From assembly GCA_963663035.1 (NCBI GenBank), contig OY760074.1:1376001-1440000 (forward strand): a DNA stretch of 64,000 bases, in the 5' to 3' direction. The DNA is from Acidobacteriota bacterium. Its GTDB lineage: Bacteria; Acidobacteriota; UBA6911; RPQK01; JADFOI01. Positions 13,283 to 51,956 of this stretch are shown one piece after another; the stretch's first letter is position 1, and every line of letters begins with the position of its first letter. Below the pieces are notes generated by a model. That model did no database searches, was not told where the DNA came from, and saw only the letters and a program-made list of their open reading frames with translations. The position numbers and the translations under genes are program-made.

Positions 13283-13522
13283 TTACTCCCTGCTAGACTC
13301 AACCTCACGGATCCAGTCGCACGTGAGCCCTGCCTTTTCATGGTGCTTCTCGACAGCCTCCTTGTTGGGGGCATCGAGGACACACCAGATTTTGTTTGCT
13401 TCCTCACTGAAAATGATATCGTGGTGCGTTACCCCGAATTCATCCGGGGGTGCGTTCTGGGCTTCGCGAAGCTGCTGCGCAGTGAATGGTTTCATTTGAT
13501 GTTCGTCCATGAATTTTGGCAT
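13283..13522 (-). CDS. DUF4242 (SCO4226-like nickel-binding) protein
   Basis: MPKFMDEH...WCVLDAPNKEAVEKHH..AG..CDWIREV. Confidence 0.8.
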   Translation of the reverse strand: MPKFMDEHQMKPFTAQQLREAQNAPPDEFGVTHHDIIFSEEANKIWCVLDAPNKEAVEKHHEKAGLTCDWIREVESSRE

Positions 13523-13887
13523 TCAGTTTCAACTCCTTCCATACAAGGCTTTGTCATTTCTTATGCGGCCTTCATCTCCAGGCCTTTTTTCCGGAACGAG
13601 ATACTACCATCGAATAATGACGCCTGCAAGCGGGGCTTGGCCCGCCTGTGGGTGAGGAAGCCTACACGCGTATTGCCCCGTCTTTCCTGCTCAATCATCT
13701 ACGTCCTTCTTGTTAGCTGGGTTTCCCTGTTGTTTGGGCGATTCTGTGGTAGAAATGTGGTAGAAAAGCCAGATCAAGGCCGCAGCATTAGTTCGTGGAA
13801 AACTCCTTGGTGAGGTATTTTCTTCTCCTTCTAAAGGTATTACTTTCTTAACTTCCTTCACCGAATCACAGGAAAAATAAAAAAATC

Positions 13888-13919
13888 TTGACCCCGTAGT
13901 ATGGTACAGGGTGCATCAT
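13888..13919 (+). promoter_or_regulatory. MerR-type promoter/operator (-35 TTGACC, long ~20-bp spacer containing a dyad, -10-like CATCAT)
   Basis: TTGACCCCGTAgtatggTACAGGGTGCATCAT; dyad ACCCCGTA/TACAGGGT directly upstream of merR. Confidence 0.75.
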
Positions 13920-13937
13920 AAGGTACTGGAGGTGAAA

Positions 13938-14348
13938 ATGGCGTTGACCATTGGAGAAATAGCCAAACGTGCCGGGATCGGCCTCGAAACCGTCCGGTTC
14001 TATGAGCGCAAAGGACTCATTGAGGAACCACCGCGAACAGATTCGGGTTATCGCCAGTACCCAGAAGATGTGGTAGCTCGGCTCCGCTTCATCAGCCGCG
14101 CAAAGGATCTTGGATTCTCGCTGAAGGAAATTGCAGAGCTATTCTCTCTCCGGGTTGATCCGGACACAACCTGTGCCGATATTAAGAGACGAGCCGAAGC
14201 CAAGATTACAACGATCGAAGAGAAGATTCGTGACATGCAAGGGATTCAGGGTGCACTTTCCAAGTTGGCTGCTTCATGCAGCGGAAGCGGCCCGGCGGGT
14301 GATTGCCCCATCTTAGAAGCACTGGACAGCCAGGAGAAAGACTGGTGA
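13938..14348 (+). CDS. merR: Heavy-metal-responsive MerR family regulator
   Basis: TIGEIAK..G....TVRFYER.GL, SGYRQY; three Cys (TCAD, SCSG, DCPIL); GGAGG RBS. Confidence 0.88.
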   Translation: MALTIGEIAKRAGIGLETVRFYERKGLIEEPPRTDSGYRQYPEDVVARLRFISRAKDLGFSLKEIAELFSLRVDPDTTCADIKRRAEAKITTIEEKIRDMQGIQGALSKLAASCSGSGPAGDCPILEALDSQEKDW

Positions 14349-14366
14349 GAAAGGAGTAATTTAGAC

Positions 14367-14636
14367 ATGACGACAAAACGACGAATCGAAGTTTTCGGTG
14401 CGGGATGTCCCGCTTGTGAGGAAACCATCAGGCTCGTAAAAAGTGTTGCCTGTCCATCCTGTGAAGTCACAGTCCTGGACATGAATGATCCAAGCGTGGC
14501 AAGCCGAGCCAAGAGCTTGGGTATTCACTCGGTTCCATCCGTCGTTATCGACGGACAACTCGCTGATTGCTGCGCGGGTCGCAGTCCAGATGAAGCAACG
14601 CTGCGATCCGCAGGGCTGGGCCAGCCGATTACCTAA
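14367..14636 (+). CDS. Small thioredoxin-fold Cys-rich protein
   Basis: GCPAC, CPSC, SVPSVVIDG, CC. Confidence 0.85.
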   Translation: MTTKRRIEVFGAGCPACEETIRLVKSVACPSCEVTVLDMNDPSVASRAKSLGIHSVPSVVIDGQLADCCAGRSPDEATLRSAGLGQPIT

Positions 14637-14664
14637 CTCAACACATAGTTAAAGGAGGAAATCC

Positions 14665-15009
14665 ATGGAGACAATCAATATGAAGGTTTTGCTTGGCGTT
14701 GGCACCGTTGTGGCTGCGGTTGGGGCCTCGCTGTGTTGCATCGTACCAGTTGCCGTGGTTTTAGTAGGAGTGGGGTCAGCTGCTCTAGGGGCACAGTTGG
14801 AGCCGGTCCGTCCTTTCTTCCTTGGATTGACACTGCTCCTCGTAGGAATCGCCTTTTATCAAGTTTACAGGCCTGACAAGGACTGCGACCCAGGACAAAG
14901 CTGTGCAACACCCGAAGGCCAGCGGCGACAACGCATCATTGTATGGATAGCGGCAATCCTGGCGGCAGTAGTAGCGGCGTTTCCCTATTACATGGGTTGG
15001 ATCATCTGA
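14665..15009 (+). CDS. merT: MerT-family mercuric/metal transport membrane protein
   Basis: ASLCCIVP in TM1, EPVRPFF, C....C loop, FPY tail. Confidence 0.88.
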   Translation: METINMKVLLGVGTVVAAVGASLCCIVPVAVVLVGVGSAALGAQLEPVRPFFLGLTLLLVGIAFYQVYRPDKDCDPGQSCATPEGQRRQRIIVWIAAILAAVVAAFPYYMGWII

Positions 15010-15034
15010 CCAATGAAGTGAATGGATATTGTTA

Positions 15035-15382
15035 ATGGTTAAAGCAATTTTGACGGCTTTTGTATTGGGCGGTCTCGCCCTTGGTATTTGGGCCGGTTCG
15101 GACCTGTGGACTGCAACCTCGGAAATGACGATTGAGGCGATGGGGGAGCAGGAAAAGGCGGTATTTTACGTGACCGGAATGACGTGAAGTGGATGTGACG
15201 CCGCCGTGAAACTAGCGGTAAGAAAATTGGACGGGATTCACCAAGTCGAGGCTTCCTACAAAGAGGGCACAGCCGTCGTAGTTTATGAACCATCTACAGT
15301 ATGTCTGGAGGAAATCAAGGCCGCGATTGACAAAGTTGGCTTCAAGGCCGAACTGCAAAGTGAGGAAGAGCTAACTCAATGA
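15035..15382 (+). CDS. MerP/HMA-domain periplasmic metal-binding protein with in-frame UGA at the first Cys of GMTCxxC (probable selenoprotein)
   Basis: Translation MVKAILTAFVLGGLALG...VTGMT*SGCDAAVKLAVRKLDGIHQVEASYKEGTAVVVYEPSTVCLEEIKAAIDKVGF; TGA at 15185-15187; stop overlaps the next ATG (ATGA). Confidence 0.8.
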
Positions 15383-15852
15383 GTGAATCGTGCTGCTCTA
15401 CCTTGCATAGACCACCCGATACACGATCCTGTCCGGTCAGTGACTTTCGTAGTAAACCCGTAGAGTGGTCGACCGTTGCTGCGTTGGCTGCGGGACCTGT
15501 CCCGCAACGGCAATGTTTCTGGTTGTGCGAGGACTCAGATTGCGATGTCGTGTACTTCGGCGAGGACGGAACACTCCTGGGAACCAGTGATGTGCGTGTG
15601 ATCCCCAGTTTCAAGGGAAGTCCAAGCCAAAGCGATCTGGTCTGTTACTGTTTTCTCTACAGCCGCCAAGACATAGCAGACGAGTTGCAAGCAAGTGGAG
15701 ATACAACGATCTTTGACCGTGTGACCGCTGAAGTTAAAGCCGGAAATTGTGCCTGCGAGGCGCGAAATCCTTCAGGCAAATGCTGTCTAGGGGCTGTGAA
15801 AAAGGCTATTCAGGAAACTCGTGAGAAATTGCAGATGAGACAAGAAACATGA
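15379..15852 (+). CDS. CopZ-N-like Zn/[2Fe-2S] metallochaperone (BFD-like)
   Basis: CPV, C...C.VVYF, VCYCF, C.CE.RNPSGKCCLG. Confidence 0.85.
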   Translation: MSESCCSTLHRPPDTRSCPVSDFRSKPVEWSTVAALAAGPVPQRQCFWLCEDSDCDVVYFGEDGTLLGTSDVRVIPSFKGSPSQSDLVCYCFLYSRQDIADELQASGDTTIFDRVTAEVKAGNCACEARNPSGKCCLGAVKKAIQETREKLQMRQET

Positions 15853-16239
15853 AGACTAAACTGCCCTTGGACCTAGTCTTTTTGCTTATCCCTTTGGGGC
15901 CTGTATATAGGGTGGCAGCAGCATGGCGTGCAGCTACCATTCTTTCTCGGTATTTCGCAGCCTTCATTCGGTCAGCTTAGTCGTTAGGCTGGGATCGTTG
16001 GGTGAGGAACCCAACAATATGACTCTCCATTCTTGACGTTTTACCAACTTTTCAGGTCGGTTTTCCCAGATTCAGCGTCAATCGTCGAAAGTAAGCTCAT
16101 TATGGTGGGTTTTCTCCTATGTCTGCTTACATCTCATGCGGACAAACGTGACACTAGGCTGATCAGTATATTCATCGTTTGACTGCTACATGTACCATGG
16201 GTGTAGTCACCCTTATCATCCTCGAAAGGAGGTAGCGAC

Positions 16240-17118
16240 ATGATCTGCGTCACCGGAGCAGGTGGGACTGTCAGCAGCGAACTCATCAAACAGCTTGAAT
16301 CAGCAAGTGCGCCGTTCCGCGCGGCCCACTTCTCGAACGAAAAGGCGGAAGCCGCATGTGCACGAGGGATCGATGCCGTCATCATTGACTACAACAGTCC
16401 GGAAATGCTTCAAGCGGCATTTCAGGGATGTGACAAACTGTTCCTTCTCGGGCCAAACGCGCTGAACCAGTCGGAGCTTGAGCAGAACGCCATCGAAGCG
16501 GCGAAGGCGGTCGGTGTGCAGCACATCGTGAAACAGTCCGTCTTCGGAGCCGACGGAGAGGCCTTCAGCCTCGCCCTGGTTCATCGGCCCGTCGAGAAAG
16601 CGATTGAATCAAGCGGCCTGACATGGACGTTTCTCCGCCCGAACAGCTTTATGCAGAACGTCGTAACGTACATGGGCGAGACGATCCGGGCTGAAGCAGC
16701 GTTCTACAGCGCCAGCGGCGAAGCGAAGATCAGCCATGTGGATGTGCGTGACATCGCCGCGGTGGCGGTGAAAGCGCTGACCGAGCCTACCCACGCGGGA
16801 AAGGCCTACGCATTGACCGGGCCCGAGGCGCTGACCTACGACGAGTTTGCGGACGAGTTGTCGAAAGTGCTTGGGCGCCCGATCAGTCACATCAGCCTTC
16901 CCCCTTCGGACTTGAAGCAGGGTATGCTTGCGGTGGGCATGCCCGAGAAGATCGCCGATCAGATGCTTGACCTGGAGCGGTACTATCGTGAGGACCAGGC
17001 GAGTCGCACCACCAATGACATCAAGCAGGTGACAGGGCGAGAGCCGAGACGATTTGCAGACTACGTTCAGGAGACCGCCGCCACGGGAGTCTGGGATGCG
17101 GAAGAGGTCACGAGATGA
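16240..17118 (+). CDS. NmrA/SDR family oxidoreductase
   Basis: ICVTGAGGTVS, WTFLRPNSFMQN, VDVRDIAAVA, LTGPEALT. Confidence 0.9.
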   Translation: MICVTGAGGTVSSELIKQLESASAPFRAAHFSNEKAEAACARGIDAVIIDYNSPEMLQAAFQGCDKLFLLGPNALNQSELEQNAIEAAKAVGVQHIVKQSVFGADGEAFSLALVHRPVEKAIESSGLTWTFLRPNSFMQNVVTYMGETIRAEAAFYSASGEAKISHVDVRDIAAVAVKALTEPTHAGKAYALTGPEALTYDEFADELSKVLGRPISHISLPPSDLKQGMLAVGMPEKIADQMLDLERYYREDQASRTTNDIKQVTGREPRRFADYVQETAATGVWDAEEVTR

Positions 17119-19354: not shown

Positions 19355-20993
19355 CCGCAATTATTCATAAGTTTGGGGTGAGTGTCGATTTTCTGCGGAA
19401 GTTCAGGGCTGAGAGTGTGTTCAGGTGCGATTACAAGGCGTCCAAGCTTGTTGAGCCGAATAGAGATGAAGCGAGAGCCCCTTCCGGAAACAGCTCGGCC
19501 CGCAGGGGGCTGTATATCTGTGTTGGCGCAGGGAGTCAGGGGACCGTCAGGTGGGACACAGACGGTGCATCAGTAATGCGAAGAGCTTTTGTTCGGGATA
19601 AGACGATGCCAGGTGCACCCAGATGCGACGAGAAGTTTCCCGAACCCGGGCACCGATTTTGAACAGGCGGCGGCGGAGCGTCTCAATCTCCAGGTTGTGC
19701 CAGGGAGTCCCGCACAGGTAATCCCGCAGGCGCAGGATTAAGACATAGGCCAGGGCGTGGATGAAGAGTCGGAACTGGTTGGCCAGGAAACGGTGGCAGC
19801 TCAAGCGATCCATGGCCAGATCTTTTTTGAAAGCTTTCACGAAGTTCTCGCACTGGCCCCGTCCGATGTAGTGGTCATACAGCTGCCCGGCCGTGAGATC
19901 CTGGCGGTTGGTGACCACAAAGCGACGGTTGAACCCGCGCTCGCTCACTTCCACCTTGGCCACCATGCGCCGCTCCCGGTCCCAACTGTCGGCCTGATAG
20001 ACGAGCTCGGTGAACTGGCGTTGCTTTTCTCCTGAGTCGTCATAGTCTGCTTGCACCTGCTCAACCAAGGGCTCGACGGTGGCCGCCAGCCGGGAGTTGC
20101 GGGCAAAGCCCACCACATACTGCAGTTTTTCCTCCTCACAGAACTCGTACAGTGCCGGCGTCGCAAAGCCACTGTCGGCTCGCACTTCGATCGGAACATC
20201 GGATCCCAGAACCTGGCGCATCCGGGCCACCACCCGTTTGAGAACCGCCACCGCGTGGGCGGCCGCCCCCTGGTTGCCGGGCCGCAGTAGCGCACATACC
20301 AGATCGCCCGTCTCGCCATCGAATAGCAGCAGCGGATGATACATGTGCTCGCGATAATAGCCGTGGTAAAAGCTGAACTCCTGCTGCCCATGCGTGACGT
20401 CATCCGTGCTGTCGATGTCCAGGATGATCTTCTCGGGCCGGCTCTTCTTGCGGTGCTTCAAGTAGGTCTCCAGCAGCCACTGTCCCAGGCGAGTGAGATC
20501 CTTCGAGTCCACCGAGTTCTCCAGTCGCGACAGCGTGGGTTGAGAAGCCAGATCCGGATCGCTTTCCGGCAGCCGATCACACACGGTCTTGAAGATGGGA
20601 TCCGAGCGCAAGCTGTCGGCATCGTTGCAGTCCTCATAGCCGGCCACGATCTGAAAGCTGCGCTGGGTGAGCAGTTCGCGAATCTGGTGGCGGACGTAGC
20701 GGCTATCTCGAGCGTCCTTCAGGCAGGAGGCAAAGCCAGCCGTCAGTCCGTGCTGTTGATCCAGGGCGTACAGACACAGCAGCCCGGCATCGGAGGAGAG
20801 CCGGCCTCCATCGAATCGAGCCACCACTTTTCTGTCAGGGTGAGATGGCAAGTTGATCTGGCAGACTGATGCATCGCTGGGCCGTACCTTTTTGGTTTGG
20901 AGTTGTTTCATAACCCCTTTTATATCAAAGAGGTACGGCATCTTTTTGTGCCCTCGATCAGACCCCTTCTTCAGAATTTATGAATAATCCGGG
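19355..20993 (-). mobile_element. IS1380-family insertion sequence flanked by CTAG
   Basis: Ends CCGCAATTATTCATAA / TTATGAATAATCCGGG, CTAG on both sides, intact transposase inside. Confidence 0.9.
19547..20941 (-). CDS. IS1380 family transposase
   Basis: FDGG.LSSDAG, GYED.ND...LR.DP, ASQPTLSRLEN, DIDST, RADSGF, Y..RG..EN. Confidence 0.95.
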   Translation of the reverse strand: MPYLFDIKGVMKQLQTKKVRPSDASVCQINLPSHPDRKVVARFDGGRLSSDAGLLCLYALDQQHGLTAGFASCLKDARDSRYVRHQIRELLTQRSFQIVAGYEDCNDADSLRSDPIFKTVCDRLPESDPDLASQPTLSRLENSVDSKDLTRLGQWLLETYLKHRKKSRPEKIILDIDSTDDVTHGQQEFSFYHGYYREHMYHPLLLFDGETGDLVCALLRPGNQGAAAHAVAVLKRVVARMRQVLGSDVPIEVRADSGFATPALYEFCEEEKLQYVVGFARNSRLAATVEPLVEQVQADYDDSGEKQRQFTELVYQADSWDRERRMVAKVEVSERGFNRRFVVTNRQDLTAGQLYDHYIGRGQCENFVKAFKKDLAMDRLSCHRFLANQFRLFIHALAYVLILRLRDYLCGTPWHNLEIETLRRRLFKIGARVRETSRRIWVHLASSYPEQKLFALLMHRLCPT

Positions 20994-21049
20994 CTAGACA
21001 CATTACATCGCCAAATCGAGTTACCGCAAGGCTGAACGTGACAATCCCC

Positions 21050-21382
21050 TCACGGATGCGCTGGCGCCTCCTCAGCGGTCGCGCGCGGACGAACATCGAT
21101 CTGTACGTCTACGTGTTGGCCGAGCTTGTTGAGCACGGTCATCAGACGGTCAATGGTGAAGCGGTCAAGCTGCACGTTGCAAATGCGGGTAAAGTCCGCA
21201 TGACTGACACTGGTGCGATCCTCGGCCCTGTGTGTCGAAAGCCCCTCATCGTCAAGAATGCCAATGATGCGGGCAGCCAGAAGCGCCTTGGTCTGCTGCA
21301 CGTCGGCGTCAGCGCGGCCGAAGTCACGGAAGACATTGCCGCTGCCGTACACCAACTCAAAATCGTCGTCTGTTTTGCTCAT
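21050..21382 (-). CDS. XRE/HTH antitoxin (HigA-like); upstream toxin reduced to a C-terminal stub at 21379-~21410
   Basis: GSGNVFRDFG, FTIDRLM..LNKLG; stub LKRLKKELQQ overlaps the start. Confidence 0.8.
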   Translation of the reverse strand: MSKTDDDFELVYGSGNVFRDFGRADADVQQTKALLAARIIGILDDEGLSTHRAEDRTSVSHADFTRICNVQLDRFTIDRLMTVLNKLGQHVDVQIDVRPRATAEEAPAHP

Positions 21383-21430
21383 TGTTGTAACTCCTTCTTC
21401 AACCGTTTAAGCCAGGATTTCCTTTTTGGG

Positions 21431-22257
21431 GGTTCTGGTGCAGACAGCCAAGGGAATTGGCGATAATGGATTATGGCGCACCGCAAAACTGAACGGAATC
21501 CTCTTTTTGCTGGACGTTGGTTCGAAGACGACATCATTCTCCTCTGCCTTCGCTGGTATTTTCGCTTCAAATTAAGTTACCAGGGCCTGGTTGCGATTTT
21601 AGGTGAGCGGGGTTTATCGATTTGGCACTCCACGATTTTGCGTTGGGTCGTTCGTTATGCGGACACGTGTGAAAAGCGCTGGCGGCGATTCGATCGACCG
21701 GTGGGCGGGAGCTGGCGGGTTGATGAAACGTTCATCAAGATTCGGGGCCAGTTGATGTATCTGTACCGCGCCGTGGATGGACAAGGCAACACCGTGGAGT
21801 TCTGTCTGAGTCGGACACGCGGCATTGCGGCGGCGAAGGCCTTCTTTCGCAAGGCACTGAAGCATCGTCGGGAGCCACACAGCATCACCTTGGATGGCCA
21901 CCGGCCGAGCCATAGCGCCCTGCGGCGCATGGGAATGAACGGTGAGTTCAACTTCCGGGGGCGGAACCCGGTGAAGATTCGTTGCTGTCAATACCTGAAC
22001 AACGTTGTGGAGCAGGACCACCGCCGGGGGAAGGGGCGATTGCGCCCGATGTTGGGATTCAAGACGTTCTACAATGCGCGACGTGTCATTATCGGCATCG
22101 AGCTGGCGCAGAAGATTCACAAACGCCAGTTCGCAATTCCGATCACCTTGCAGTCGAATCCCGCCGTGACCTGGCGTCATGTCATGGCAGCATAGTCCGC
22201 ATCGCCGCGGCGCACTCCTAGTCTTATCGCTCCGACAATCCTATCTGCACCAGAACC
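21431..22257 (+). mobile_element. IS6-family insertion sequence
   Basis: IRs GGTTCTGGTGCAGA / TCTGCACCAGAACC; no matching target duplication. Confidence 0.9.
21473..22195 (+). CDS. IS6 family transposase
   Basis: SWRVDETFIKIRG, YLYRAVD, YLNNVVEQDHR. Confidence 0.93.
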   Translation: MAHRKTERNPLFAGRWFEDDIILLCLRWYFRFKLSYQGLVAILGERGLSIWHSTILRWVVRYADTCEKRWRRFDRPVGGSWRVDETFIKIRGQLMYLYRAVDGQGNTVEFCLSRTRGIAAAKAFFRKALKHRREPHSITLDGHRPSHSALRRMGMNGEFNFRGRNPVKIRCCQYLNNVVEQDHRRGKGRLRPMLGFKTFYNARRVIIGIELAQKIHKRQFAIPITLQSNPAVTWRHVMAA

Positions 22258-29845: not shown

Positions 29846-30949
29846 GACCTTGTTGCATGGATCATCCCGAAGGATGTCTAATCATGGTTTTTTTCAACAC
29901 TGGGGATAACTTAGATGCCACATAAGTTCAACGCATCCCGACGGCACAAGTTCGATAAGGCGCAGTATCGGGTGATCGACTGGGCGGAATATAACGAGAG
30001 CCTGCGCCAGCGGGGTGATCTGACGATCTGGGTCAGTGAGGAGGCGCAAAGTGTGTGGAGCGCGCCGCGCCGCACGTCACGGGGTGGCCAGTGGAGATAC
30101 TCGGATTTGGCGATCGAGACATGCCTGACGCTGCGCACGACGTATCGGCTTGCGTTGCGGCAAACGCAGGGACTTATGGGCTCCATCGGCACGCTCATGG
30201 GGCTGGATATACGGGTGCCGGATTACTCCACACTGTCGCGTCGCGCAAACGGCTTGAGCATCGCTCAGGCGATGAGGCAAGCCGGGTCTGTGGCTGTCCA
30301 TCTGGTGGTGGACAGTACCGGCCTCAAGATCTTCGGCGAGGGGGAATGGCTCGCCCAGAAGCATAAAATCAAGGGAATACGCAGCCGCTGGCGCAAACTC
30401 CACCTCGGACTGGACCTGGCCAGCGGTGCGATTGTTTGCGCCGATCTGACTCACGATGAGGTTGGAGACAGCACCGCCTTACCCGGGCTCCTGGATCAAC
30501 TCGATGCTCCTGTCACGGGCTTTCTGGCTGACGGCGCCTATGATGGAGCGTCTATACGGGATATGCTGAGGCCGCGGTATGGGGAGACCCTGGATGTGGT
30601 TATACCGCCGCCGAAGAACGCAGTGATCCGACCGCAATCGGCGCGGGATCCAACCGTTCGGGATCGCCATATTGCCCAGATCCGCAGCAACGGCCGCATG
30701 GCCTGGCAAGTGGCCACAGGGTACAACCAACGCAGCCGGATAGAAACGCAGATCGGTCGTTGGAAGAGCGCGATCGGCCCCAAGCTCAAATCTCGCAGCT
30801 TCTCCAGGCAAATCACGGAGATCCAGGTCGGCCAGAAAGTTCTGAACACAATGACCGCACTCGGGCGGCCTGTGTTCCAACGCATCGCCTGACGCTACCG
30901 CTTGGGAAAGGGCGAATTCCATCTCCGCCCCGATCCATGCAACAACGCT
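29846..30949 (+). mobile_element. IS5-family (IS903-like) element, copy 1
   Basis: 18-bp IRs GACCTTGTTGCATGGATC / GATCCATGCAACAACGCT; 1104 bp. Confidence 0.92.
29915..30892 (+). CDS. IS5 family transposase
   Basis: W.EYNESLRQRG, DSTGLK..GEGEW, ADGAYD, GY.QRS..ET. Confidence 0.95.
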   Translation: MPHKFNASRRHKFDKAQYRVIDWAEYNESLRQRGDLTIWVSEEAQSVWSAPRRTSRGGQWRYSDLAIETCLTLRTTYRLALRQTQGLMGSIGTLMGLDIRVPDYSTLSRRANGLSIAQAMRQAGSVAVHLVVDSTGLKIFGEGEWLAQKHKIKGIRSRWRKLHLGLDLASGAIVCADLTHDEVGDSTALPGLLDQLDAPVTGFLADGAYDGASIRDMLRPRYGETLDVVIPPPKNAVIRPQSARDPTVRDRHIAQIRSNGRMAWQVATGYNQRSRIETQIGRWKSAIGPKLKSRSFSRQITEIQVGQKVLNTMTALGRPVFQRIA

Positions 30950-39642: not shown

Positions 39643-40746
39643 AGCGTTGTTGCATGGATCGGGGCGGAGATGGAATTCGCCCTTTCCCAAGCGGTAGCGT
39701 CAGGCGCTGCGTTGGAACACAGGCCGCCCGAGTGCGGTCATTGTGTTCAGAACTTTCTGGCCGACCTGGATCTCCGTGATTTGCCTGGAGAAGCTGCGAG
39801 ATTTGAGCTTGGGGCCGATCGCGCTCTTCCAACGACCGATCTGCGTTTCTATCCGGCTGCGTTGGTTGTACCCTGTGGCCACTTGCCAGGCCATGCGGCC
39901 GTTGCTGCGGATCTGGGCAATATGGCGATCCCGAACGGTTGGATTCCGCGCCGATTGCGGTCGGATCACTGCGTTTTTCGGCGGCGGTATAACCACATCC
40001 AGGGTCTCCCCATACCTCTGCCTCAGCATATCCCGTATAGACGCTCCATCATAGGCGCCGTCAGCCAGAAAGCCCGTGACAGGAGCATCGAGTTGATCCA
40101 GGAGCCCGGGTAAGGCGGTGCTGTCTCCAACCTCATCGTGAGTCAGATCGGCGCAAACAATCGCACCGCTGGCCAGGTCCAGTCCGAGGTGGAGTTTGCG
40201 CCAGCGGCGGCGTATTCCCTTGATTTTATGCTTCTGGGCGAGCCATTCCCCCTCGCCGAAGATCTTGAGGCCGGTACTGTCCACCACCAGATGGACAGCC
40301 ACAGACCCGGCTTGCCTCATCGCCTGAGCGATGTTCAAGCCGTTTGCGCGACGCGACAGTGTGGAGTAATCCGGCACCCGTATATCCAGCCCCATGAGCG
40401 TGCCGATGGAGCCCATAAGTCCCTGCGTTTGCCGCAACGCAAGCCGATACGTCGTGCGCAGCGTCAGGCAGGTCTCGATCGCCAAATCCGAGTGTCTCCA
40501 CTGGCCACCCCGTGACGTGCGCCGCGCCGCGCTCCACACACTTTGCGCCTCCTCACTGACCCAGATCGTCAGATCGCCCCGCTGGCGCAGGCTCTCGTTA
40601 TATTCCGCCCAGTCGATCACCCGATACTGCGCCTTATCGAACTTGTGCCGTCGGGATGCGTTGAACTTATGTGGCATCTAAGTTATCCCCAGTGTTGAAA
40701 AACACCATGATTAGACATCCTTCGGGATGATCCATGCAACAAGGTC
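39643..40746 (-). mobile_element. IS5-family element, copy 2 (inverted, near-identical to copy 1; transposase 39700-40677)
   Basis: Same 1104-bp length and IRs; transposase differs from copy 1 at a few residues. Confidence 0.92.
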
Positions 40747-42301: not shown

Positions 42302-43568
42302 TGACCTGCCCCCACGAACGAGTCCACCCTCTATGCTAGACCCGGGACCATTTGAAGTCCACTCCAAGGGATTGGATCCAGTGCCTGCGACCTAGGTAGT
42401 TTGGCCTCTGGCGCCGGCGGCCGATAGGCCAAGGCGCTGTGAGGCCGGATCTGATTGTAATCCCTCCGCCAGCGTTCTACCAACACCTTGGCTTCCCCCA
42501 GCGTGTCGAAGATCTCCATGTTCAGCAGCTCATCCCGTAGTTTCCCGTTGAAACTCTCAATGTACCCATTCTCCCAGGGGCTGCCCGGCTCGATGTACAA
42601 GGTCCTTACCCCAACAGCCTGCAGCCAGTCCCGGACCGCCTGTGCCGTAAACTCCGATCCGTTATCGGACCGGATAAACTCAGGCACTCCCCGATCAACG
42701 AATAACTCCGCCAGCCGGTCCAACACGTCTTGGTGATTCATCTGCCGTTTCACATCAATGGCGAGGCACTCTCTGGTGTACTCATCCAGGATCGTCAATA
42801 GCCGAAAGGCTCGCCCATCATGGGTCCGTTCATGCACGAAATCATAGCTCCAGACGTGGTTCTTGCGAGCCGCTCGTAACCGAACACAGGAACCGTCATT
42901 AAGCCACAGCCTCCTTCGTTTCGGCTGTCTGGACGGGACTTTCAGCCCTTCTTGTCTCCACAGCCTCTCCATCCGCTTAGGATTCCCCTTCCACCCTTCC
43001 CCATGAAGTATCGCCGTGACCCGCCGGTAGCCATAACGCCCGTATTGCGTAGCCAACTCCACCATCCGGGCCACCAATCGGGCCTCATCATCGGGAATTT
43101 GCCTTTCCCTTCGCTGGGTCGATCGAACCTGTCCCAGCACTTGGCAGGCCCGACGTTCGGAGACTCGCTCTGCTCCTAATCGCTCTCGTACCCACATCAC
43201 CGCTCGTCTCCTGTTCGCCGGGCCTAGAAGTTTCCCGAGGACACTTCCTTCAGGATCTGCTTGTCCAAAGACAGATCCGCCACCAGCTTCTTCAACCGGG
43301 TATTCTCCTTCTCCAACACCTTCAACCTCTTGGCCTGGTCCAACCGGAGCCCTCCGTACTCTTTGCGCCACCGGTAGTAGGTCTGCTCGCTCACCCCCAT
43401 CTGCTTCGACACCTGTCCCACCCTCTGTCCTTGGGCCAGACCCACCTCTGCCTCACGCAGCTTCATGATGATCTGTTCTGCCCTAAACCGCTTCCCTGCC
43501 ATCCTTGCCTCCTTCCTAAACCGGAAATCCTAACATTCAAACTGGACTCGTTTTAGGGGGCAAGGTCA
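42302..43568 (-). mobile_element. IS3-family element (orfA 43224-43502; orfB ~42331-43230 via -1 frameshift)
   Basis: TGACCTGCCCC / GGGGCAAGGTCA ends; [25 protein letters not shown]; GGGAAAC slippery site. Confidence 0.93.
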
Positions 43569-47218: not shown

Positions 47219-47746
47219 TCAGGCCGGTTTAGGAGAAGTGCCATCTGAAGGCTTAGCCCGGCACCGGCTTGGCGATGGATTGTCGCTGTTCCAGATGATA
47301 TTCCAATAGATCTTCCAGGAACCATCAGACTGTCTCTGCCAGATGTCAACAAACTTACCCAGATCCTGCATCTGTTCGCCACCCGCTATGGGGCTAACAG
47401 TCATCGCGAAGTTGCCTCGGCGAAAAGCCCAGTCACCTGTAACAACAACGTCTTGAGCGGAGATGTTAAAGTCCACCATCGTGAACTGATCAAAGAAGGA
47501 CTGCATCCAGGTCTGAATACCCTCGCTGCCTTTGGATACTGGCTCGTTAGGAGACATTAATACCGCATCTGCTGCATACAAGGACACGAGTTCTTCCGTG
47601 TCGTTTGCTCTGGCTGCGGCAACAAATTCCTCACTTGCCTTATTGATGTTCCCTATGTCGGCTTCGGTTGTGGCTGTCTCCTCCACAACGGACGGTGTGC
47701 AGGAAGCAAAAAAAAGTAGGAAAAGTAAAGTTAGGTGGGATCTCAT
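47219..47746 (-). CDS. DUF4440/SnoaL-like lipoprotein
   Basis: Lipobox [28 protein letters not shown]. Confidence 0.85.
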
Positions 47747-47827
47747 GGGGTGACTCCTTTGGGTATTCCCCCGTTCAGTCTAAGCCAGCACTACCTTGCA
47801 AAAACATCAAAACTTCATTACTAGGAT

Positions 47828-48148
47828 TCATTGATTTTCGTGTAAATAAATGGTCACTCTTCTAGACGCGTAGGCTCGGATTCCCCACCGGTCCATTTCC
47901 AGGATGGCGCATACCCAGTGCAAACTTCCGGGATGAGTATCATCGGAAAAGAACCACTTCAACGCATCTCGTTGCCACATCTTCGGCTCACGACTGGAAA
48001 GCACTAGATCGAGAAAAGCCCGACGAAGAATACCCAGAGCCAATCGTCTCACTGCGGCATCTGATTTCTCTGTCTCAGGATATAACCCTTCACTTGCAGG
48101 CACGAGCACTGTCATACTGTTATTCCTTGGGTGAACCTTACTGCCCAT
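47828..48148 (-). CDS. Hypothetical protein
   Basis: RRLALGILRRAFLDL...A.KWF.S....GS..WVC.IL.MD helical pattern. Confidence 0.6.
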   Translation of the reverse strand: MGSKVHPRNNSMTVLVPASEGLYPETEKSDAAVRRLALGILRRAFLDLVLSSREPKMWQRDALKWFFSDDTHPGSLHWVCAILEMDRWGIRAYASRRVTIYLHENQ

Positions 48149-48202
48149 AAAGTTTCAGCCCCACACTTCTGAGATTTGCCCTGGGTCGGATGAGAGGCGC
48201 CG

Positions 48203-48289
48203 CTACTGCACACTTTTCTCAAGGGACTTGATGGCCAAGTCTTTCTCATCCTCCGTCCATCGGTTTTTGTTTTCGATTACAGTGAACAT
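48203..48289 (-). CDS. 28-aa small ORF MFTVIENKNRWTEDEKDLAIKSLEKSVQ
   Basis: AAGGGG RBS; synonymous-type differences relative to the degenerate copy at ~59998-60082. Confidence 0.45.
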   Translation of the reverse strand: MFTVIENKNRWTEDEKDLAIKSLEKSVQ

Positions 48290-48371
48290 TGTGCTGTGTT
48301 CCCCTTACCCGCGAGCCACAACATGGTCGGGGTTAACTAAATTCTCACCAATGTACATTACGGCGAGCGCC

Positions 48372-48419
48372 TTTAAAAATAGAAAATTAAGTATAGATCT
48401 ATAGGTATTTTATATGTAT
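48372..48419 (-). promoter_or_regulatory. Putative NhaR (LysR) operator, copy 1
   Basis: TTTAAAAATAGAAAATTAAGTATAGATCTATAGGTATTTTATAT. Confidence 0.65.
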
Positions 48420-48433
48420 CATGGGGGGGGGGC

Positions 48434-48652
48434 ATGAAGTGGCTAAATTACCGTCACCTGCTCTATTTTTGGACCGTGGCAAGAGAAGGTATGATCACGG
48501 CCGCCTGCGAGAGGCTGCGTCTGGCCCAGCCGGCCATCTCCGCGCAGCTAAAGAAGCTCGACGAATCCCTTGGCCACAAGCTATTCAGGCGTGTGGGTAG
48601 CACAACCTGGCTCTGACCGAAACGGTTCGCGTGGTGTTCCGGTACGCAAACG
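48434..48652 (+). pseudogene. nhaR: Truncated, frameshifted nhaR copy
   Basis: MKWLNYRHLLYFWTVAREG... nearly identical to the intact copy; breaks after ~55 codons. Confidence 0.85.
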
Positions 48653-49133
48653 TATCACTCTAACGAGAAGCCAGCCTTACCTGTTCAACGTCAACCACTT
48701 TTTCCCATGCCTCCGTGGTCAATTTATTCGACGACCCGGTGACGGGAGACGCCTTGACGGACCATTGAAGTCCCCTCCCAAGTTGAAATGCCTTTCTTTC
48801 TAAATGAACAAGCTCCAACTGGTTTAAGGCTATGGGAATGGCCAATGTTGAAGGTGTTGAATAGTGGCGCAAGCTTGGTCAGAAAGTCCAATGCGTTAGG
48901 CGTGAGACGCAGGTCGTTTCTCTGTATGATGGTGCGCACTTGGATGTAGTCTAAGGTTCCATTTAAGCCAGCCTCGCCGTGCAGTTTGTGACATGACTCT
49001 CATGCTGGATCGGAGGATGAAACGGCAGGGGCTGAGGAGGGTTAATCCGCTGCACCGGATTTCAAGGTCAGGGATTACCAACAGAGGGGTCGGCGTCCGG
49101 CAGGAGCCCTTCGATTATTGGCCCTGTCTGCTA

Positions 49134-49181
49134 ATACATGTAAGAACTCTATAGATCTATCCTGTATTTTCTATTTTTCAA
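49134..49181 (+). promoter_or_regulatory. Putative NhaR operator, copy 2
   Basis: ATACATGTAAGAACTCTATAGATCTATCCTGTATTTTCTATTTTTCAA matches copies 1 and 3. Confidence 0.65.
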
Positions 49182-49271
49182 CACCGTCCAAGCATTATAT
49201 ATTATAAAGAAGGCGGTAACGTCAGGCCCATAAATACTCTTACAGTTTTCCTAAGAACATGGGAAAGGGTG

Positions 49272-49469
49272 ATGCCCAAAAGAAAAAAGCGCCAGACAGA
49301 GCCTCAGACGGATCTGCTTACAAAGCACCAGAAAACGAACAGAAAGGTCTCATCAACCGGAGGACAACGAGAGTTGCCCTGCCGAAGCTGCAACCTCATG
49401 GTGCCAACCTGGCGCAAAAATTGTATCCATTGTGGCGGTCCCTTGGCCACGCATTCGGCCGCATCTTGA
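49272..49469 (+). CDS. Basic zinc-ribbon microprotein
   Basis: CRSC...CIHCG; purine-rich RBS; downstream of operator copy 2. Confidence 0.5.
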   Translation: MPKRKKRQTEPQTDLLTKHQKTNRKVSSTGGQRELPCRSCNLMVPTWRKNCIHCGGPLATHSAAS

Positions 49470-49510
49470 TGACGAACATGAGGTTGTCTGACACCTCTAA
49501 TGAGTTCTAG

Positions 49511-49858
49511 CCCGGATTATGCATAAACTTTAATATTTCTCCCATTTTTTGTGGCAACCGGAGGGTCATCTTTGGAATTGGCACTGGATGGCGTGTTGGG
49601 ATGAGCAGAGTGAGGCATCAGGGGGAAAACAGGTTGATTTTGGAGACACTTCAACTGAGGTGCTCTTGAAACCCGACTGGGGGAAGCAGGACCAAAGGTC
49701 AGGTGGGACACAGTCGCTGCATCAGAAGCGAGAAGAACTCCTGCTGGGGATCAGATAAGAAGAAGCCAAATGAATCCAAATTCGGCGTGAGCTCTGCTGG
49801 ACTCGAGCCCCGATTTCAAAGAGCCTCCGACGCAGGGTCTCCACTTCCAGGGGGTGCC
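49511..49858 (-). mobile_element. IS1380 remnant (one terminal IR plus degenerate transposase C-terminus)
   Basis: CTAG-CCCGGATTATGCATAA; LEVETLRRRLFEIGARV...RRIWIHLASSY...LMQRLCPT* mirrors the end of the 19547 transposase. Confidence 0.8.
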
Positions 49859-51956
49859 AAAATTCTTGGCGAACAGAGATGCCTCTACCTTGCGAATCAC
49901 CCTTTGGCTGCTGTGTACCGGACTGACTGCACCTGCAGTGATGGCCCTTCCATCAGCCGAGGATTTCTTGCTGGATCAACCCACTTTGACTCTCCTTCAG
50001 GAGGAACTGTCGGGTGAGTTGGCCAAGGAGCATGTAGTCACCCTCGCAGCTTATAACCGAATTCAGGGCTCGCCCGGCTATTCCGAAGCTGCCCGCTATA
50101 TTCTCCAACAGCTTCAAAGCTTTGGCCTCAGAGCCTGGATCGAAAGCTTTCCAGCAGAGGGCAGAATCAGCTATCAAACCTGGCAGTCTCCTCCCGGATG
50201 GAGCATAGAATCCGCTGTACTGCGGATAGTAGAACCCGAAGATGAGTTGATTGTGAGTTACCCCGAGAGTGCCATGAGTGTTATGACCTATTCGAATCCT
50301 GGTCATGTGCGAGGCGAATTGGTGTATGTGGGAAAGGGAACCTCTGATCAGGATTATCAGGGAGTAGATGTCAGGGGCAAGCTTGTATTGGCCACAGGAC
50401 TCGATGGGACAGTGCACCGTTTGGCGGTTCTAAAATATGGTGCCGCAGCCGTAGTGTCCTATCTGGATGACGAACTGGCGACAGAGCATCCCGACATGCT
50501 TCGCTATAGGGAGTGGCGACCTAGCCCTGATGAACTGGTGCGCCTGACTTTTGGATTCAATCTGACGTCGCGGCAAGGTCAAAGGCTCAGAGATCTGCTG
50601 AATAGTGGAAGCTGTGTGGTGTTGGACGCCAAAGTGGAGGGTCGCGGAATCGAGTTTGGAAGCTTAGATGTTGTGGTGGCAGTCCTTATCGGAACCGAAA
50701 GACCCAAGCAGGAATTGCTTTACACAGCTCATTTGGACCTTCCTAAGGAGTCAGCCAATGACAATGCCAGCGGTAGCGCAGCCATCCTCGACATCGCCCG
50801 GAGCTTCCAGGCTTTAATCAGTGCGGGAAAACTAACGCCTCCCAAGCGCACCCTGCGCTTCCTTTGGGTTCCCGCGTTCTATGGGACGATGGCCTACATA
50901 GACGCCCATCCAGAAATACAGGGGCCTGAGTTGGGTGGAAACTTTCTGGGCAACCTCAACCTCGACGTGGTGGGAAGCAATCTTGAATTGCTCCACAGCC
51001 GCATGAACGTCACCTGGACTCCCCAGTCGATGTCCAGCGCCCTCACTGATGTGGTTGCCATAATGGTCGAATACGTTGACACCTTGGGAGGGGAGATCTC
51101 AACGACTCACAGTAACTTCAATTACCGGATCATTCCCTTCAAGGGAGGCAGTGACCATCTCATCTTTAACGACGGAATGATTCGAGTTCCCGCTATGAGG
51201 TTGGGACATTCGCCGGATTACACCCAGCATACCAGTGAAGACACAACTGACAAGGTTGATCCTATCGAACTGGAGCGGGCCGAACTGATTGCGGCCAGCG
51301 CCTTCTGGTATCTGGCAAACCTTTCCGAAGAGCAGAGCTTGAGTTTAACAAACCTTGTAGCGGCGAAAGCCCAGGAGCGACTGGCTTCAGATACACAGCG
51401 GGCTTCGGGCTGGCTGCTGGAGGCTCCAGCTGATCGCCTTGAAGAGATGTACAACGAAGGGCGGCGGGTCATTATGTTCGCCTTGGAGAGAGAACAGCAG
51501 GCCCTCAATAGCATTCTCTCTTTTTCCCCCTTTGGCACTACCCGGCAGTACGTCCAGATCTGGAATCAGACTCTGGACAGTCAATCTCAGGTGATTATTC
51601 GGACACTTCAGGCACTGGTCCGGCAACGGGGAGGAAAGCTTTCGTTCTCTCAAGAGCGCACTTTTGAGGAAAGGGAGGCAGCTTCTTGGATTCCCTCTCG
51701 ACTGACGCGAGGCCCGCTGGCACCCGACCTTCCCAAAGCGCGTCTCTCGGACCTAGAGCAGAGTTGGTATGAAACTTCAGAGGCCCAGTCCCTTGATCAG
51801 TATCTGTTGGTCAACTTCATCGATGGGGAGCGGACGATACTGGACATCCGCAATGCTCTGGCGGGAGTCTCTCATCCCGTCTCAGTTATAGCCGTTCATC
51901 ACTTTATTCAGGATCTGGCCAAGACCCAGCTGATCGAACTTCGCCGAGTCAACTAG
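49854..51956 (+). CDS. M28-family peptidase with PA domain (DUF4910-like); start uncertain
   Basis: TAHLD, ANDNASG, NLNLDVVG, GGSDH, HTSEDT.DKVD. Confidence 0.85.
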   Translation: MPKFLANRDASTLRITLWLLCTGLTAPAVMALPSAEDFLLDQPTLTLLQEELSGELAKEHVVTLAAYNRIQGSPGYSEAARYILQQLQSFGLRAWIESFPAEGRISYQTWQSPPGWSIESAVLRIVEPEDELIVSYPESAMSVMTYSNPGHVRGELVYVGKGTSDQDYQGVDVRGKLVLATGLDGTVHRLAVLKYGAAAVVSYLDDELATEHPDMLRYREWRPSPDELVRLTFGFNLTSRQGQRLRDLLNSGSCVVLDAKVEGRGIEFGSLDVVVAVLIGTERPKQELLYTAHLDLPKESANDNASGSAAILDIARSFQALISAGKLTPPKRTLRFLWVPAFYGTMAYIDAHPEIQGPELGGNFLGNLNLDVVGSNLELLHSRMNVTWTPQSMSSALTDVVAIMVEYVDTLGGEISTTHSNFNYRIIPFKGGSDHLIFNDGMIRVPAMRLGHSPDYTQHTSEDTTDKVDPIELERAELIAASAFWYLANLSEEQSLSLTNLVAAKAQERLASDTQRASGWLLEAPADRLEEMYNEGRRVIMFALEREQQALNSILSFSPFGTTRQYVQIWNQTLDSQSQVIIRTLQALVRQRGGKLSFSQERTFEEREAASWIPSRLTRGPLAPDLPKARLSDLEQSWYETSEAQSLDQYLLVNFIDGERTILDIRNALAGVSHPVSVIAVHHFIQDLAKTQLIELRRVN

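Follow-up and report, generated by a model that had tools for sequence, protein, structure and literature searches.

Within the stretch of 64,000 nucleotides of an Acidobacteriota contig analysed here (the window), a reading frame for a small heavy-metal-associated (HMA) protein is interrupted by an in-frame TGA at the codon that would specify the first metal-binding cysteine of a GMTCxxC motif. The question raised by this locus is whether the TGA is read as selenocysteine (Sec), is read as another residue, ends a genuine short protein or marks a decayed gene. That Sec stands in for the first Cys of the metal site in an HMA/MerP-like protein encoded by an Hg-type operon, as proposed in the initial annotation, is the reading best supported by the clade-wide presence of the stop, the purifying selection around it and the Cys of distant homologues. 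Most probably, the locus is one gene for a 115-residue exported or membrane-anchored HMA protein, a MerP-like partner of MerT, in which UGA-51 is read as Sec to form a UxxC site.

The interrupted frame and its gene cluster

The frame and its elements are as follows.

15035..15382, plus strand: gene for a MerP-like HMA protein of 115 amino acids when TGA-51 is read through, with a hydrophobic signal or anchor at the N terminus and residues 40-107 forming a beta-alpha-beta-beta-alpha-beta domain
15044..15094, plus strand: N-terminal hydrophobic segment, residues 4-20, a putative signal peptide or membrane anchor judged from sequence, of low pLDDT
15185..15187, plus strand: TGA within the frame, proposed as Sec codon 51, where GMT-C-xx-C has its first ligand
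15194..15196, plus strand: Cys54 codon TGT, second metal ligand, read from the sequence and invariant as a column in the alignments

From ATG 15035 the frame comprises 115 sense codons, the TGA at 15185-15187 being codon 51 in the context V-T-G-M-T-[TGA]-S-G-C, and its terminal TGA (15380-15382) overlaps, in an ATGA, the ATG that starts the open reading frame (ORF) at 15379-15852. The initial annotation had placed the TGA exactly at the first Cys codon of the motif in an ORF starting at ATG 15035, which is borne out by the sequence, and had described an intact HMA domain beyond it and the ATGA overlap with the next gene, which agree with the Pfam match and the coordinates, respectively. Under translation table 11, the same frame yields two ORFs, one of 52 amino acids (15029-15187) and one of 58 amino acids (15206-15382). 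Residues 4-20 are hydrophobic and follow Lys3, an arrangement that fits a putative signal peptide or signal anchor, and an acidic linker is also present.

Read-through of the frame gives a full-length match to Pfam HMA (PF00403) that spans the TGA: residues 43-104 align with profile positions 1-62 of 62 (E 1.2e-14), and the score is 54.8 bits against a gathering cutoff of 24.8. The AlphaFold2 model, for which U was entered as C, has pLDDT of at least 90 for about residues 41-110 (means of 94-97 over residues 41-100) and consists of strands 40-47, 68-74, 79-84 and 104-107 and helices 52-63 and 91-100, residue 51 being placed in the loop that joins strand 40-47 to helix 52-63. Foldseek gave 75 PDB matches at E<=0.001, the top ones among the matches listed all being HMA domains; the target TM-score against MerP (1osd) is 0.94, with an rmsd of 0.8. 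In sequence, the HMA domain resembles domains of Cu-ATPases and of CopZ equally closely.

A general reading of TGA as a sense codon is rejected, because TGA is the stop of 21 of the 40 Pfam-supported ORFs in the window. There are 89 pairs of frames in the window joined by a single TGA. A Pfam scan of 40 of them, chosen because they do not run evidently antisense to real genes, shows no other domain across the TGA.

The gene lies in a cluster of co-directional genes in the order merR, thioredoxin-like, merT, merP(U) and CopZ-N-terminal-type, with the following features besides the frame itself.

13888..13924, plus strand: putative MerR-type promoter/operator upstream of merR, with TTGACC at 13888-13893 overlapping the imperfect dyad ACCCCGTA-N6-TACAGGGT (13891-13912)
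13911..14348, plus strand: merR-family metal-responsive regulator (Pfam MerR-DNA-bind 2.3e-20, MerR_1 1.9e-18)
14367..14636, plus strand: small thioredoxin-fold protein with a CPAC motif (Pfam Thioredoxin_3 1.5e-09)
14665..15009, plus strand: merT-like inner-membrane metal transporter (Pfam MerT 7.2e-27, profile positions 12-115 of 116)
15379..15852, plus strand: CopZ-N-terminal-type putative Fe-S cluster-binding metallochaperone, Cys-Cys form (Pfam zf_CopZ 1.9e-09), beginning in the ATGA overlap

The dyad at 13891-13912 was flagged as an 8-pair stem by a terminator scan, and we take the putative operator to resemble the mer operator of Tn501; that the promoter is of the MerR type is something that we infer, since a sigma-70 consensus scan of 13500-16300 found no promoter. 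The true start of merR is likely to be ATG 13938, which is preceded by GGAGG. Among the NCBIfam models, the merR product scores 135.3 bits with TIGR02051 (MerR), under the cutoff of 150.85, and similarly with the ZntR and CueR models, and the thioredoxin-fold protein reaches a sub-cutoff 30.4 bits with TIGR00412 (MTH895/ArsE). The MerT-like protein, with Cys-Cys in TM1 and one further pair of Cys, scores 80.4 bits with MerT (cutoff 150) and 90.6 bits with MerT_CopZ_Se (cutoff 375). The product of ORF 15379-15852 exceeds the cutoff of 100 for NF047645 (CopZ_Nterm_CC) with 113.1 bits; its gene is translationally coupled to the MerP-like gene via the ATGA overlap, and a CopZ-N-terminal-type gene also lies downstream of merP in the Cys-form relatives L006, L010 and L012.

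With merT and merR directly upstream on the same strand, the neighbourhood is that of a MerP gene. A mercuric reductase, MerA (pyridine-nucleotide-disulfide oxidoreductase), was not found among the 54 window ORFs scanned. With no mercuric reductase adjacent, the label of an Hg-type operon is owed to MerR, MerT and what surrounds the relatives: a MerA gene lies beside Cys-form relatives in L002, L005, L009, L011 and L013, of which L002 and L013 have the gene in merT-merP-merA clusters and L009 and L011 also have MerR with MerA. In place of an adjacent merA, the operon of the window has the thioredoxin-like gene and the CopZ-N-terminal-type Fe-S gene. Several transposase genes and one transposase remnant also occur in the window.

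Conservation of the stop across relatives

The nearest genome locus, L001, comes from a different Acidobacteriota genome and has 89% nucleotide identity to the window, with 39 of 345 ORF positions differing. It has a TGA at the same codon 51, with the same frame and the same end, and in both DNA sequences the stretch from the TGA to GTG 15206, Cys54 included, is in frame. A search of short proteins gave 94 clusters with 71 to 98% identity to the query. Among them are 36 clusters of 50-residue N-terminal pieces, every one of which (36/36) ends immediately before codon 51, with GMT as the last residues in 31, GMA in 2, and GMS, GMG and GMV in 1 each. The other 58 are C-terminal pieces, one being the window's own and 57 being others, and 53 of them are exactly 58 amino acids long. 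The identity of the stop was read as TGA in the window and L001, the database fragments giving its position alone. Equal sizes of the longest contigs suggest that several of the N- and C-terminal fragments are pairs on shared contigs.

A search for proteins near the full length gave 4 proteins among 8 candidates. Because the best of these has only 64% identity, the clade has no unsplit form in the protein database searched, that is, nothing unsplit and full-length at more than 64% identity. Codon 51 specifies Cys in homologues of 36-64% identity, and in a 10-sequence alignment, where L001 carries TGA, that column is Cys in P0002, P0003, P0004, P0015, P0106, P0136, L002 and L013; the Sec/Cys-pair criteria of the Zhang and Gladyshev surveys call for at least two such homologues. 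TGC or TGT was found at the matched site in 79 of the 80 loci of a genome scan, a biased figure in that one of the two scan patterns demanded Cys or Arg there. These loci do not include the window's own genome. The phmmer search (6725 matches) was unable to reveal split fragments, because multi-HMA proteins predominate among the 150 matches listed; the single-domain Cys homologues among those listed are P0015, P0106 and P0136 only.

Conservation beyond the stop equals or exceeds that ahead of it. Mean pairwise identity across the fragment clusters is 0.84 after the stop and 0.76 before, and the best-conserved part of the N-terminal piece is its last 10 residues, strand 1 and GMT (mean identity 0.875). 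In the comparison of the window with L001, dN/dS amounts to 0.18 ahead of the TGA and 0.27 beyond it, where 10 of the 20 changes are non-synonymous (binomial p 0.009 against neutrality). The density of mismatches is lower just after the TGA (6/90 vs 33/255), but not significantly so (p 0.12). The stop thus recurs in other sequences, with purifying selection on both sides of it, and its conservation in further genomes and contigs places the TGA at the Cys codon beyond chance.

These results bear directly on whether the gene is a pseudogene or a sequencing error, that is, a nonsense mutation in a decaying mer-like operon within a transposon-rich region. The transposase genes and the remnant in the window would suit such decay, as would the adjacent merT of L001, which is without roughly its first 40 codons; homology to the window stops there, and the operon of the L001 copy is disrupted or mis-assembled. 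The stop position, however, is identical in L001 and the 36 N-terminal fragment clusters, frameshifts are absent and the 53 C-terminal pieces are all 58 amino acids long, dN/dS after the stop is as low as stated above, and the database searched holds no intact Cys form of the clade. The identity spread of 71-98% argues against the fragments being redundant copies of one sequence. Decay or error is therefore extremely unlikely, and a nonsense mutation set against close homologues that all have TGC or TGT, which the initial annotation had named as the alternative, fails on the TGA of L001, on the 36 clusters and on the lack of a Cys form above 64% identity.

A stop conserved throughout a clade could also be a true one. 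The product would then be a 50-residue membrane peptide, perhaps with a separate 58-residue product from GTG 15206, or termination would be dominant and the full-length protein rare or conditional. Gene callers predict precisely these two ORFs in the window and on many contigs, and the candidate SECIS described below is weak. Against this, the split cuts the HMA fold after strand 1 and ahead of helix 1, and neither piece would keep both ligands or the fold; the high conservation of strand 1 and GMT is sensible only as part of a whole domain; and Cys54 and the residues from TGA to GTG stay in frame in both DNA sequences. A genuine stop is accordingly considered very unlikely, and translation through codon 51 is preferred.

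The candidate SECIS hairpin and the inserted residue

Bacterial SECIS elements lie directly 3' of the UGA, and the hairpin below may act as one.

15200..15219, plus strand: candidate bacterial SECIS hairpin, 5-bp stem in two registers, loop G 15208 at 20 nt after the UGA

In the first register, 15200-15204 pairs with 15215-15219, with 2 further bp and a GAA loop (-5.9 kcal/mol); in the second, of equal energy and identical to the register in the minimum-free-energy (MFE) fold, 15203-15207 pairs with 15215-15219 around the loop GAAACUA. G 15208 lies in the loop 20 nt past the UGA in both. Constraints given for bacterial SECIS elements in the available text of a 2026 review are a loop of 3-9 nt with G within its initial two positions, an upper stem of 4-16 bp, a distance of 16-37 nt from the UGA and an MFE of -7.5 kcal/mol or lower (PMC13188914). 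The window and L001 fit these limits (5 bp, spacing 20, 61-nt MFE -12.9/-15.6), as do 10-14% of controls, namely 77 of 555 sampled TGA trinucleotides of the window and 8 of 79 Cys-homologue loci under the loose criteria. Taken alone, the hairpin has an energy of -5.9 to -6.4 kcal/mol, with z from -0.5 to +0.8 against shuffles. The pairing and the loop G at 20 nt reported in the initial annotation are thus possible, but the energy and the shuffle z-scores are no better than chance, and on the bSECIS check that it had suggested both sequences fit the formal limits, as do the control sites just mentioned.

Over the stretch 4 to 35 nt past the UGA, the window and L001 have identical DNA, and because these are the two TGA-bearing DNA sequences the hairpin has no covariation. 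An AGT-to-ACC change in L001 disrupts 2 of the 6 pairs that make up the lower stem in the 61-nt fold of the window, so that this stem is not preserved there. Conservation of the hairpin could be explained by protein constraint, because its stem falls in Ala and Val codons that are conserved in Cys homologues as well. The hairpin is weak evidence for Sec.

Genes for the Sec machinery were sought nearby, and neither selA, selB and selD (Pfam, 54 ORFs) nor tRNA-Sec was found in the 64-kb window, where ARAGORN gave 0 tRNAs and Rfam at gathering thresholds gave 0 matches, including none to a SECIS family. ARAGORN likewise found no tRNA-Sec in 27 acidobacterial-type loci.

The comparative evidence shows that codon 51 is translated, not which residue is inserted, and UGA-51 might instead be read through as Cys or Ser by an opal suppressor, for instance a tRNA-Cys(UCA) of the selC* type or an allo-tRNA of Acidobacteria, to give an ordinary CxxC or SxxC HMA protein. 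tRNA-Sec-like tRNA-Cys(UCA) opal suppressors are described in deltaproteobacteria, and allo-tRNAs in Acidobacteria are considered possible nonsense suppressors (available portion of PMC5389517). The selC* genes in that portion, however, are from Firmicutes, Thermodesulfobacteria, Nitrospirae and Proteobacteria and not from Acidobacteria. The 64-kb window contains no tRNA gene, and general suppression would be costly because so many of the supported ORFs (21/40) end in TGA. A TGA fixed at a metal-ligand Cys, with Cys in distant homologues, is moreover the classic Sec/Cys pattern, of the kind used for defining selenoprotein families (as described in the accessible part of PMC1088965). Suppression is therefore judged very improbable, and Sec, rather than another residue, is the predicted occupant of position 51.

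In the proposed mechanism, the small hairpin that lies 20 nt downstream of the UGA would be the target of SelB and tRNA-Sec. Decoding of UGA-51 as Sec would place a metal site of the form U-x-x-C in the loop that links strand 1 to helix 1. The protein is presumed to be periplasmic, and the Sec51/Cys54 pair may capture a soft metal ion outside the cytoplasm, most likely Hg(II) by analogy with MerP and MerT. The captured metal would then be handed from Sec51/Cys54 to the Cys pair of MerT.

Relation to known metal-binding selenoproteins

Sec has been catalogued in the NF041115 family (UxxU), in cation-transporting ATPases (UxxC) and in MerT (the table in the available part of the 2026 review, PMC13188914), and Acidobacteria are credited with three selenoprotein families. 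The best NCBIfam match of the protein is NF041115 (E 2.4e-19, residues 39-108 on positions 3-72 of 74), a UxxU metal-binding (seleno)protein that is likewise a small HMA-type metal binder with Sec as its CxxC ligands. The window protein differs in being UxxC, with Sec as the first ligand only and Cys (TGT) as the second, in its hydrophobic export or anchor segment and in its place after merT, and it is not a member of NF041115 because it scores 69.2 bits against a cutoff of 95. In selenoproteins of the E1-E2 cation-transporting P-type ATPase family, as described in the accessible parts of PMC2398784 and PMC13188914, the first Cys of the motif is also replaced by Sec to give UxxC, probably in an HMA-type N-terminal domain. 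Those ATPases are large and have cytoplasmic domains, whereas the window protein stands alone with 115 residues, is putatively exported and is paired with MerT.

The likeness to MerP (TIGR02052; 1afi, 1osd) extends to the fold, the GMTCxxC-type site, the hydrophobic leader and the place directly after merT. It differs from MerP in having Sec for Cys, in the lack of an adjacent merA and in its score with the MerP equivalog model TIGR02052 (35.5 bits, below the cutoff of 92.55). Two fusion models join such proteins in one polypeptide. On the MerT/CopZ fusion-like selenoprotein NF045683 (235 positions), the MerT of the window covers positions 9-117 and the MerP-like protein 142-229; on the MerTP fusion NF033556 (186 positions), they cover 2-101 and, with MerP-like residues 5-105, 85-185. 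Because together they cover NF045683 and NF033556, the pair looks like a split form of these fusions, from which it differs in consisting of two genes 25 nt apart and in scores far below the cutoffs (34.5/90.6 vs 375 for NF045683; 66.7/74.2 vs 180 for NF033556). The MerT-family selenoproteins of a 2022 preprint have a CU motif, whereas the MerT of the window has Cys-Cys.

A selenoprotein named 'Mercuric transport protein MerP' appears in the available part of the GOS survey, with 0 Cys homologues tabulated (PMC2398784), and thus shares both the name and the claim of Sec in MerP. It consists, however, of two identical 33-residue reads with the context ..GTUCQSG.., has no GMT-U-xx-C and has no evident similarity to the window protein; because this 33-amino-acid fragment looks unrelated, it is rejected as an earlier description of the present family. 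Among the literature matches listed, 'selenoprotein' is never paired with PF00403, 'HMA domain' or 'heavy-metal-associated domain', and MerP, HMA and mercury go unmentioned in the accessible portions of the BSepDB and deep-Sep main texts. In NCBI records, one C-terminal piece is a 'heavy-metal-associated domain-containing protein' and one N-terminal piece a 'hypothetical protein'. Most likely, the split-annotated gene is a new, unannotated member of the already known metal-site selenoproteins.

Annotation renders this gene, and about ninety related database entries, as two short ORFs, so that a recurrent selenoprotein is being missed. The general picture of Sec biology is unchanged, substitution of Sec for Cys at metal-binding CxxC sites, HMA-type ones included, having already been documented. 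To the few metal-handling selenoproteins the locus adds a stand-alone, putatively exported, single-Sec (UxxC) MerP-like form, and it offers a natural Sec/Cys pair for probing what selenium contributes to the capture of Hg(II) or Cu(I) and its hand-off to MerT. A more speculative and rather unlikely extension is that an Acidobacteriota clade has fixed Sec in an exported MerP-like partner of MerT, with no Cys form left, for a role as a trap or switch. Since an Hg-Se bond would be much stronger than an Hg-S bond, such a protein may be no simple hand-off chaperone and might instead be a high-affinity extracytoplasmic trap or a selenium-dependent soft-metal switch; if so, the availability of selenium would be coupled to the handling of mercury.

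An HMA domain encoded across an in-frame TGA

Five tightly spaced genes run in the same direction, and the HMA gene comes fourth among them.

Genes of the operon
13911-14348, plus strand: MerR-family regulator (likely true start ATG 13938, with GGAGG ahead of it)
14367-14636, plus strand: small thioredoxin-fold protein
14665-15009, plus strand: MerT (Pfam MerT, 7.2e-27)
15035-15382, plus strand: HMA gene (Pfam HMA, 1.2e-14 across the TGA)
15379-15852, plus strand: putative Fe-S metallochaperone of the CopZ-N-terminal type (NF047645, 113.1 bits; cutoff 100)

As read from the sequence, the frame of the HMA gene extends from ATG 15035 to TGA 15380-15382 with 115 sense codons and a single interruption, the TGA at 15185-15187 (codon 51), in the context V-T-G-M-T-[TGA]-S-G-C, in which Cys54 is encoded by TGT (15194-15196). 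The terminal TGA overlaps the ATG of the following ORF (15379-15852) in an ATGA. Under translation table 11 the frame is broken into ORFs of 52 and 58 aa. Residues 4-20, which follow Lys3 and precede an acidic linker, are hydrophobic and fit a candidate signal peptide or signal anchor. When the frame is read through the TGA, residues 43-104 match positions 1-62 of the 62 in the Pfam HMA profile (PF00403; E 1.2e-14; 54.8 bits, gathering score 24.8), and the stop therefore lies within one complete HMA domain. Thus, the start, the TGA at codon 51, the GMT-TGA-SG-C motif, the ATGA overlap and the HMA domain continuing intact beyond the TGA, all described in the initial annotation, are borne out. 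An AlphaFold2 model, for which 10 sequences were aligned and U was replaced by C, has the beta-alpha-beta-beta-alpha-beta fold (block pLDDT means of 94-97 over residues 41-100) and places residue 51 in the loop that joins strand 40-47 to helix 52-63; its Foldseek matches are HMA domains, including MerP 1osd (target TM-score 0.94, rmsd 0.8).

Ahead of merR, TTGACC overlaps an imperfect dyad, ACCCCGTA-N6-TACAGGGT (13888-13912), which is a putative MerR-type operator; a consensus promoter scan reported no promoter within 13500-16300. In the stretch 13888-13940, the listed GTG start of merR (13911) falls inside the dyad of the putative operator, and ATG 13938, behind GGAGG, is the more likely start. 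The regulator gene seems to head the operon under its own control. Neither mercuric reductase nor Sec machinery was found among the 54 ORFs of the 64-kb window scanned against Pfam, and the window contains no tRNA genes and no Rfam families. Because 21 of its 40 Pfam-supported ORFs end in TGA, this codon is an ordinary stop in the genome, and none of 40 frame pairs scanned with Pfam, out of 89 joined by one TGA, carries another domain across a TGA.

Mobile elements abound downstream of the operon (19547-22195, 29915-30892, 39700-40677, 42331-43371 and 49569-49952), with DDE transposases of three types, the DDE_Tnp_1_5 element being in two copies, and an rve integrase. ParA, GmrSD, a UvrD/PD-(D/E)XK helicase-nuclease and a DNA methylase are encoded there as well. 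A short minus-strand DDE_Tnp_1_4 remnant (49569-49952) may be among the other nonsense mutations mentioned in the initial annotation. About 2.1 kb (47746-49854) is without an ORF of at least 110 aa and has a lower G+C content (0.49-0.50).

Conservation of the stop position and mer-type relatives

A scan of genome contigs returned 80 loci, the nearest of which is L001, from an Acidobacteriota MAG. Over the 345 positions of the ORF it has 39 differences from the window, and it shares the TGA codon, the frame and the ATGA end. At the remaining 79 loci the site reads TGC or TGT, a count that is skewed, as one of the two patterns in the search demanded Cys or Arg there. Homology of L001 (9451-9978) to window 14560-15040 begins only at about 14786, and unrelated sequence stands in place of the first ~40 merT codons, which include the Cys-Cys motif, and of all that precedes them, the thioredoxin-like gene and merR; either the operon is rearranged in this MAG or the contig is chimeric. 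The L001 HMA gene and its TGA are intact despite this break.

A database search restricted to proteins of 30-63 aa gave 94 clusters (identity 71-98%), of which 36 are 50-residue N-terminal pieces that all stop directly before codon 51 (ending in GMT in 31, GMA in 2, and GMS, GMG and GMV in 1 each) and 58 are C-terminal pieces, 53 of them, including that of the window, exactly 58 aa long. A search at 64-205 aa yielded, from 8 candidates, only four proteins, with a top identity of 64% and with Cys (3) or Arg (1) at the site. On the basis of these two length-restricted searches, all database entries of the clade above ~70% identity are split at codon 51 and the Cys form is absent; the stop is read as TGA only in the window and L001, the fragments giving its position alone. 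The Arg-containing protein, P0005 from a Luteitalea sp. MAG (108 aa), reads GMT-R-AG-C, and TGA is one step away from the Arg codons CGA and AGA. In another Acidobacteriota MAG (L013:20170-20325), a second HMA-like ORF, 10 kb from a Cys-form merP, begins with a segment resembling a signal peptide and carries TGA in frame at the first-ligand position (G-L-T-[TGA]-Q-S-C); the locus ends ~65 nt past the TGA, within the domain.

Mean pairwise identity among the fragment clusters is 0.84 after the stop versus 0.76 before it, and 0.875 over the final ten residues of the N-terminal pieces. Comparison of the window with L001 gives dN/dS values of 0.18 ahead of the TGA and 0.27 beyond it, where non-synonymous changes make up 10 of 20 (binomial test against neutrality, p 0.009). 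This pattern is the usual comparative hallmark of a UGA that is translated at a Sec/Cys position (criteria in PMC1088965), and the HMA gene is likely a genuine selenoprotein gene. The initial annotation had also considered a private nonsense mutation, with TGC or TGT in all close homologues; this is not the case, because the stop position recurs in L001 and in the 36 N-terminal clusters. A pseudogene or sequencing error is highly improbable, being contradicted by the TGA of L001, the recurring split clusters, the conservation after the stop and the dN/dS values. A true, conserved stop that gives two products, or mostly termination, is unlikely, since the split falls inside the HMA fold and the conservation pattern speaks against it too.

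Gene contexts of Cys-form relatives
L002: CsoR-like repressor, MerT, MerP, MerA
L009, L011: MerR ahead of the matched MerP-like gene and, after it, MerA bearing an N-terminal HMA domain
L013: MerA, MerT, MerP
L006, L010, L012: MerP, then a zf_CopZ protein, the order seen in the window
L004, L014: MerT-HMA-type fusions

These contexts assign the lineage of the HMA gene to mer-type systems. In sequence, Cu-ATPase and CopZ domains are at least as close to the domain of the HMA gene as canonical MerP is, and its product scores below the cutoff of TIGR02052 MerP (35.5 against 92.55 bits); "MerP-like" therefore denotes position and architecture, not equivalog membership.

A candidate SECIS hairpin and decoding of UGA-51

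The hairpin proposed in the initial annotation, with a loop G about 20 nt from the UGA, is present: the loop G (15208) lies 20 nt after the UGA both in the original pairing (-5.9 kcal/mol) and in a shifted 5-bp register of equal energy with the loop GAAACUA, which is that of the minimum-free-energy folds. The bacterial SECIS consensus in the Figure 2 legend of a 2026 review (PMC13188914) comprises a loop of 3-9 nt, a stem of 4-16 bp, a spacing of 16-37 nt, a G in the first two loop positions and an MFE of at most -7.5 kcal/mol, applied here to a 61-nt fold. The element conforms to it in both TGA-bearing genes, but so do 77 of 555 sampled window TGA trinucleotides and 8 of 79 Cys-form loci. Folding z-scores are -0.5 to +0.8, covariation is absent because the window and L001 are identical over the hairpin, and the stem is formed by Ala and Val codons whose conservation extends to Cys homologues. 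Mismatches between the window and L001 are less dense after the TGA, though not significantly so (p 0.12). The hairpin is thus compatible with a SECIS element, with a likelihood ratio below about ten, which is not decisive. A suppressor tRNA that reads UGA-51 as Cys or Ser is a quite improbable alternative to Sec; such tRNAs, allo-tRNAs in Acidobacteria among them, are described in PMC5389517.

Relation to known selenoproteins and proposed function

The top NCBIfam match of the HMA-gene product is NF041115, the UxxU "metal-binding (seleno)protein" model, with 69.2 bits, below the cutoff of 95. A table of the 2026 review lists three relevant selenoprotein types, namely NF041115 (UxxU, 2 Sec), cation-transporting ATPases (UxxC) and MerT, and CU-motif MerT selenoproteins are described in a 2022 preprint. 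NF047645, matched by the 15379-15852 product, is of the Cys-Cys form, and its sister model NF045877 covers a CU-motif selenoprotein (Csac_0668 family); the HMA gene and the gene after it thus both belong to families with known Sec variants. A "MerP" selenoprotein is named in the GOS survey (PMC2398784); the two reads deposited for it are 33-aa fragments of identical sequence without resemblance to the HMA-gene product, and it was rejected as the same protein. Among the literature matches listed, none pairs "selenoprotein" with HMA terms, and MerP and HMA go unmentioned in the main texts of BSepDB and deep-Sep. In at least one NCBI record, the two halves carry separate annotations. The HMA gene is so far unannotated and, because Sec-for-Cys selenoproteins at HMA-type metal sites are already known, it is not a new kind of system.

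The initial proposal of a Sec-containing metal-binding protein in a Hg-type operon is supported by the TGA kept in L001, the constraint after the stop and the mer contexts of the relatives. In such an operon, probably under MerR control, UGA-51 would be decoded by SelB and Sec-tRNA-Sec with assistance from the downstream hairpin, and the HMA domain, probably exported, may hold a soft metal ion between Se-51 and S-54. Sec might make the protein a trap for that ion; as a shuttle, it would hand the ion to the Cys pair of MerT.
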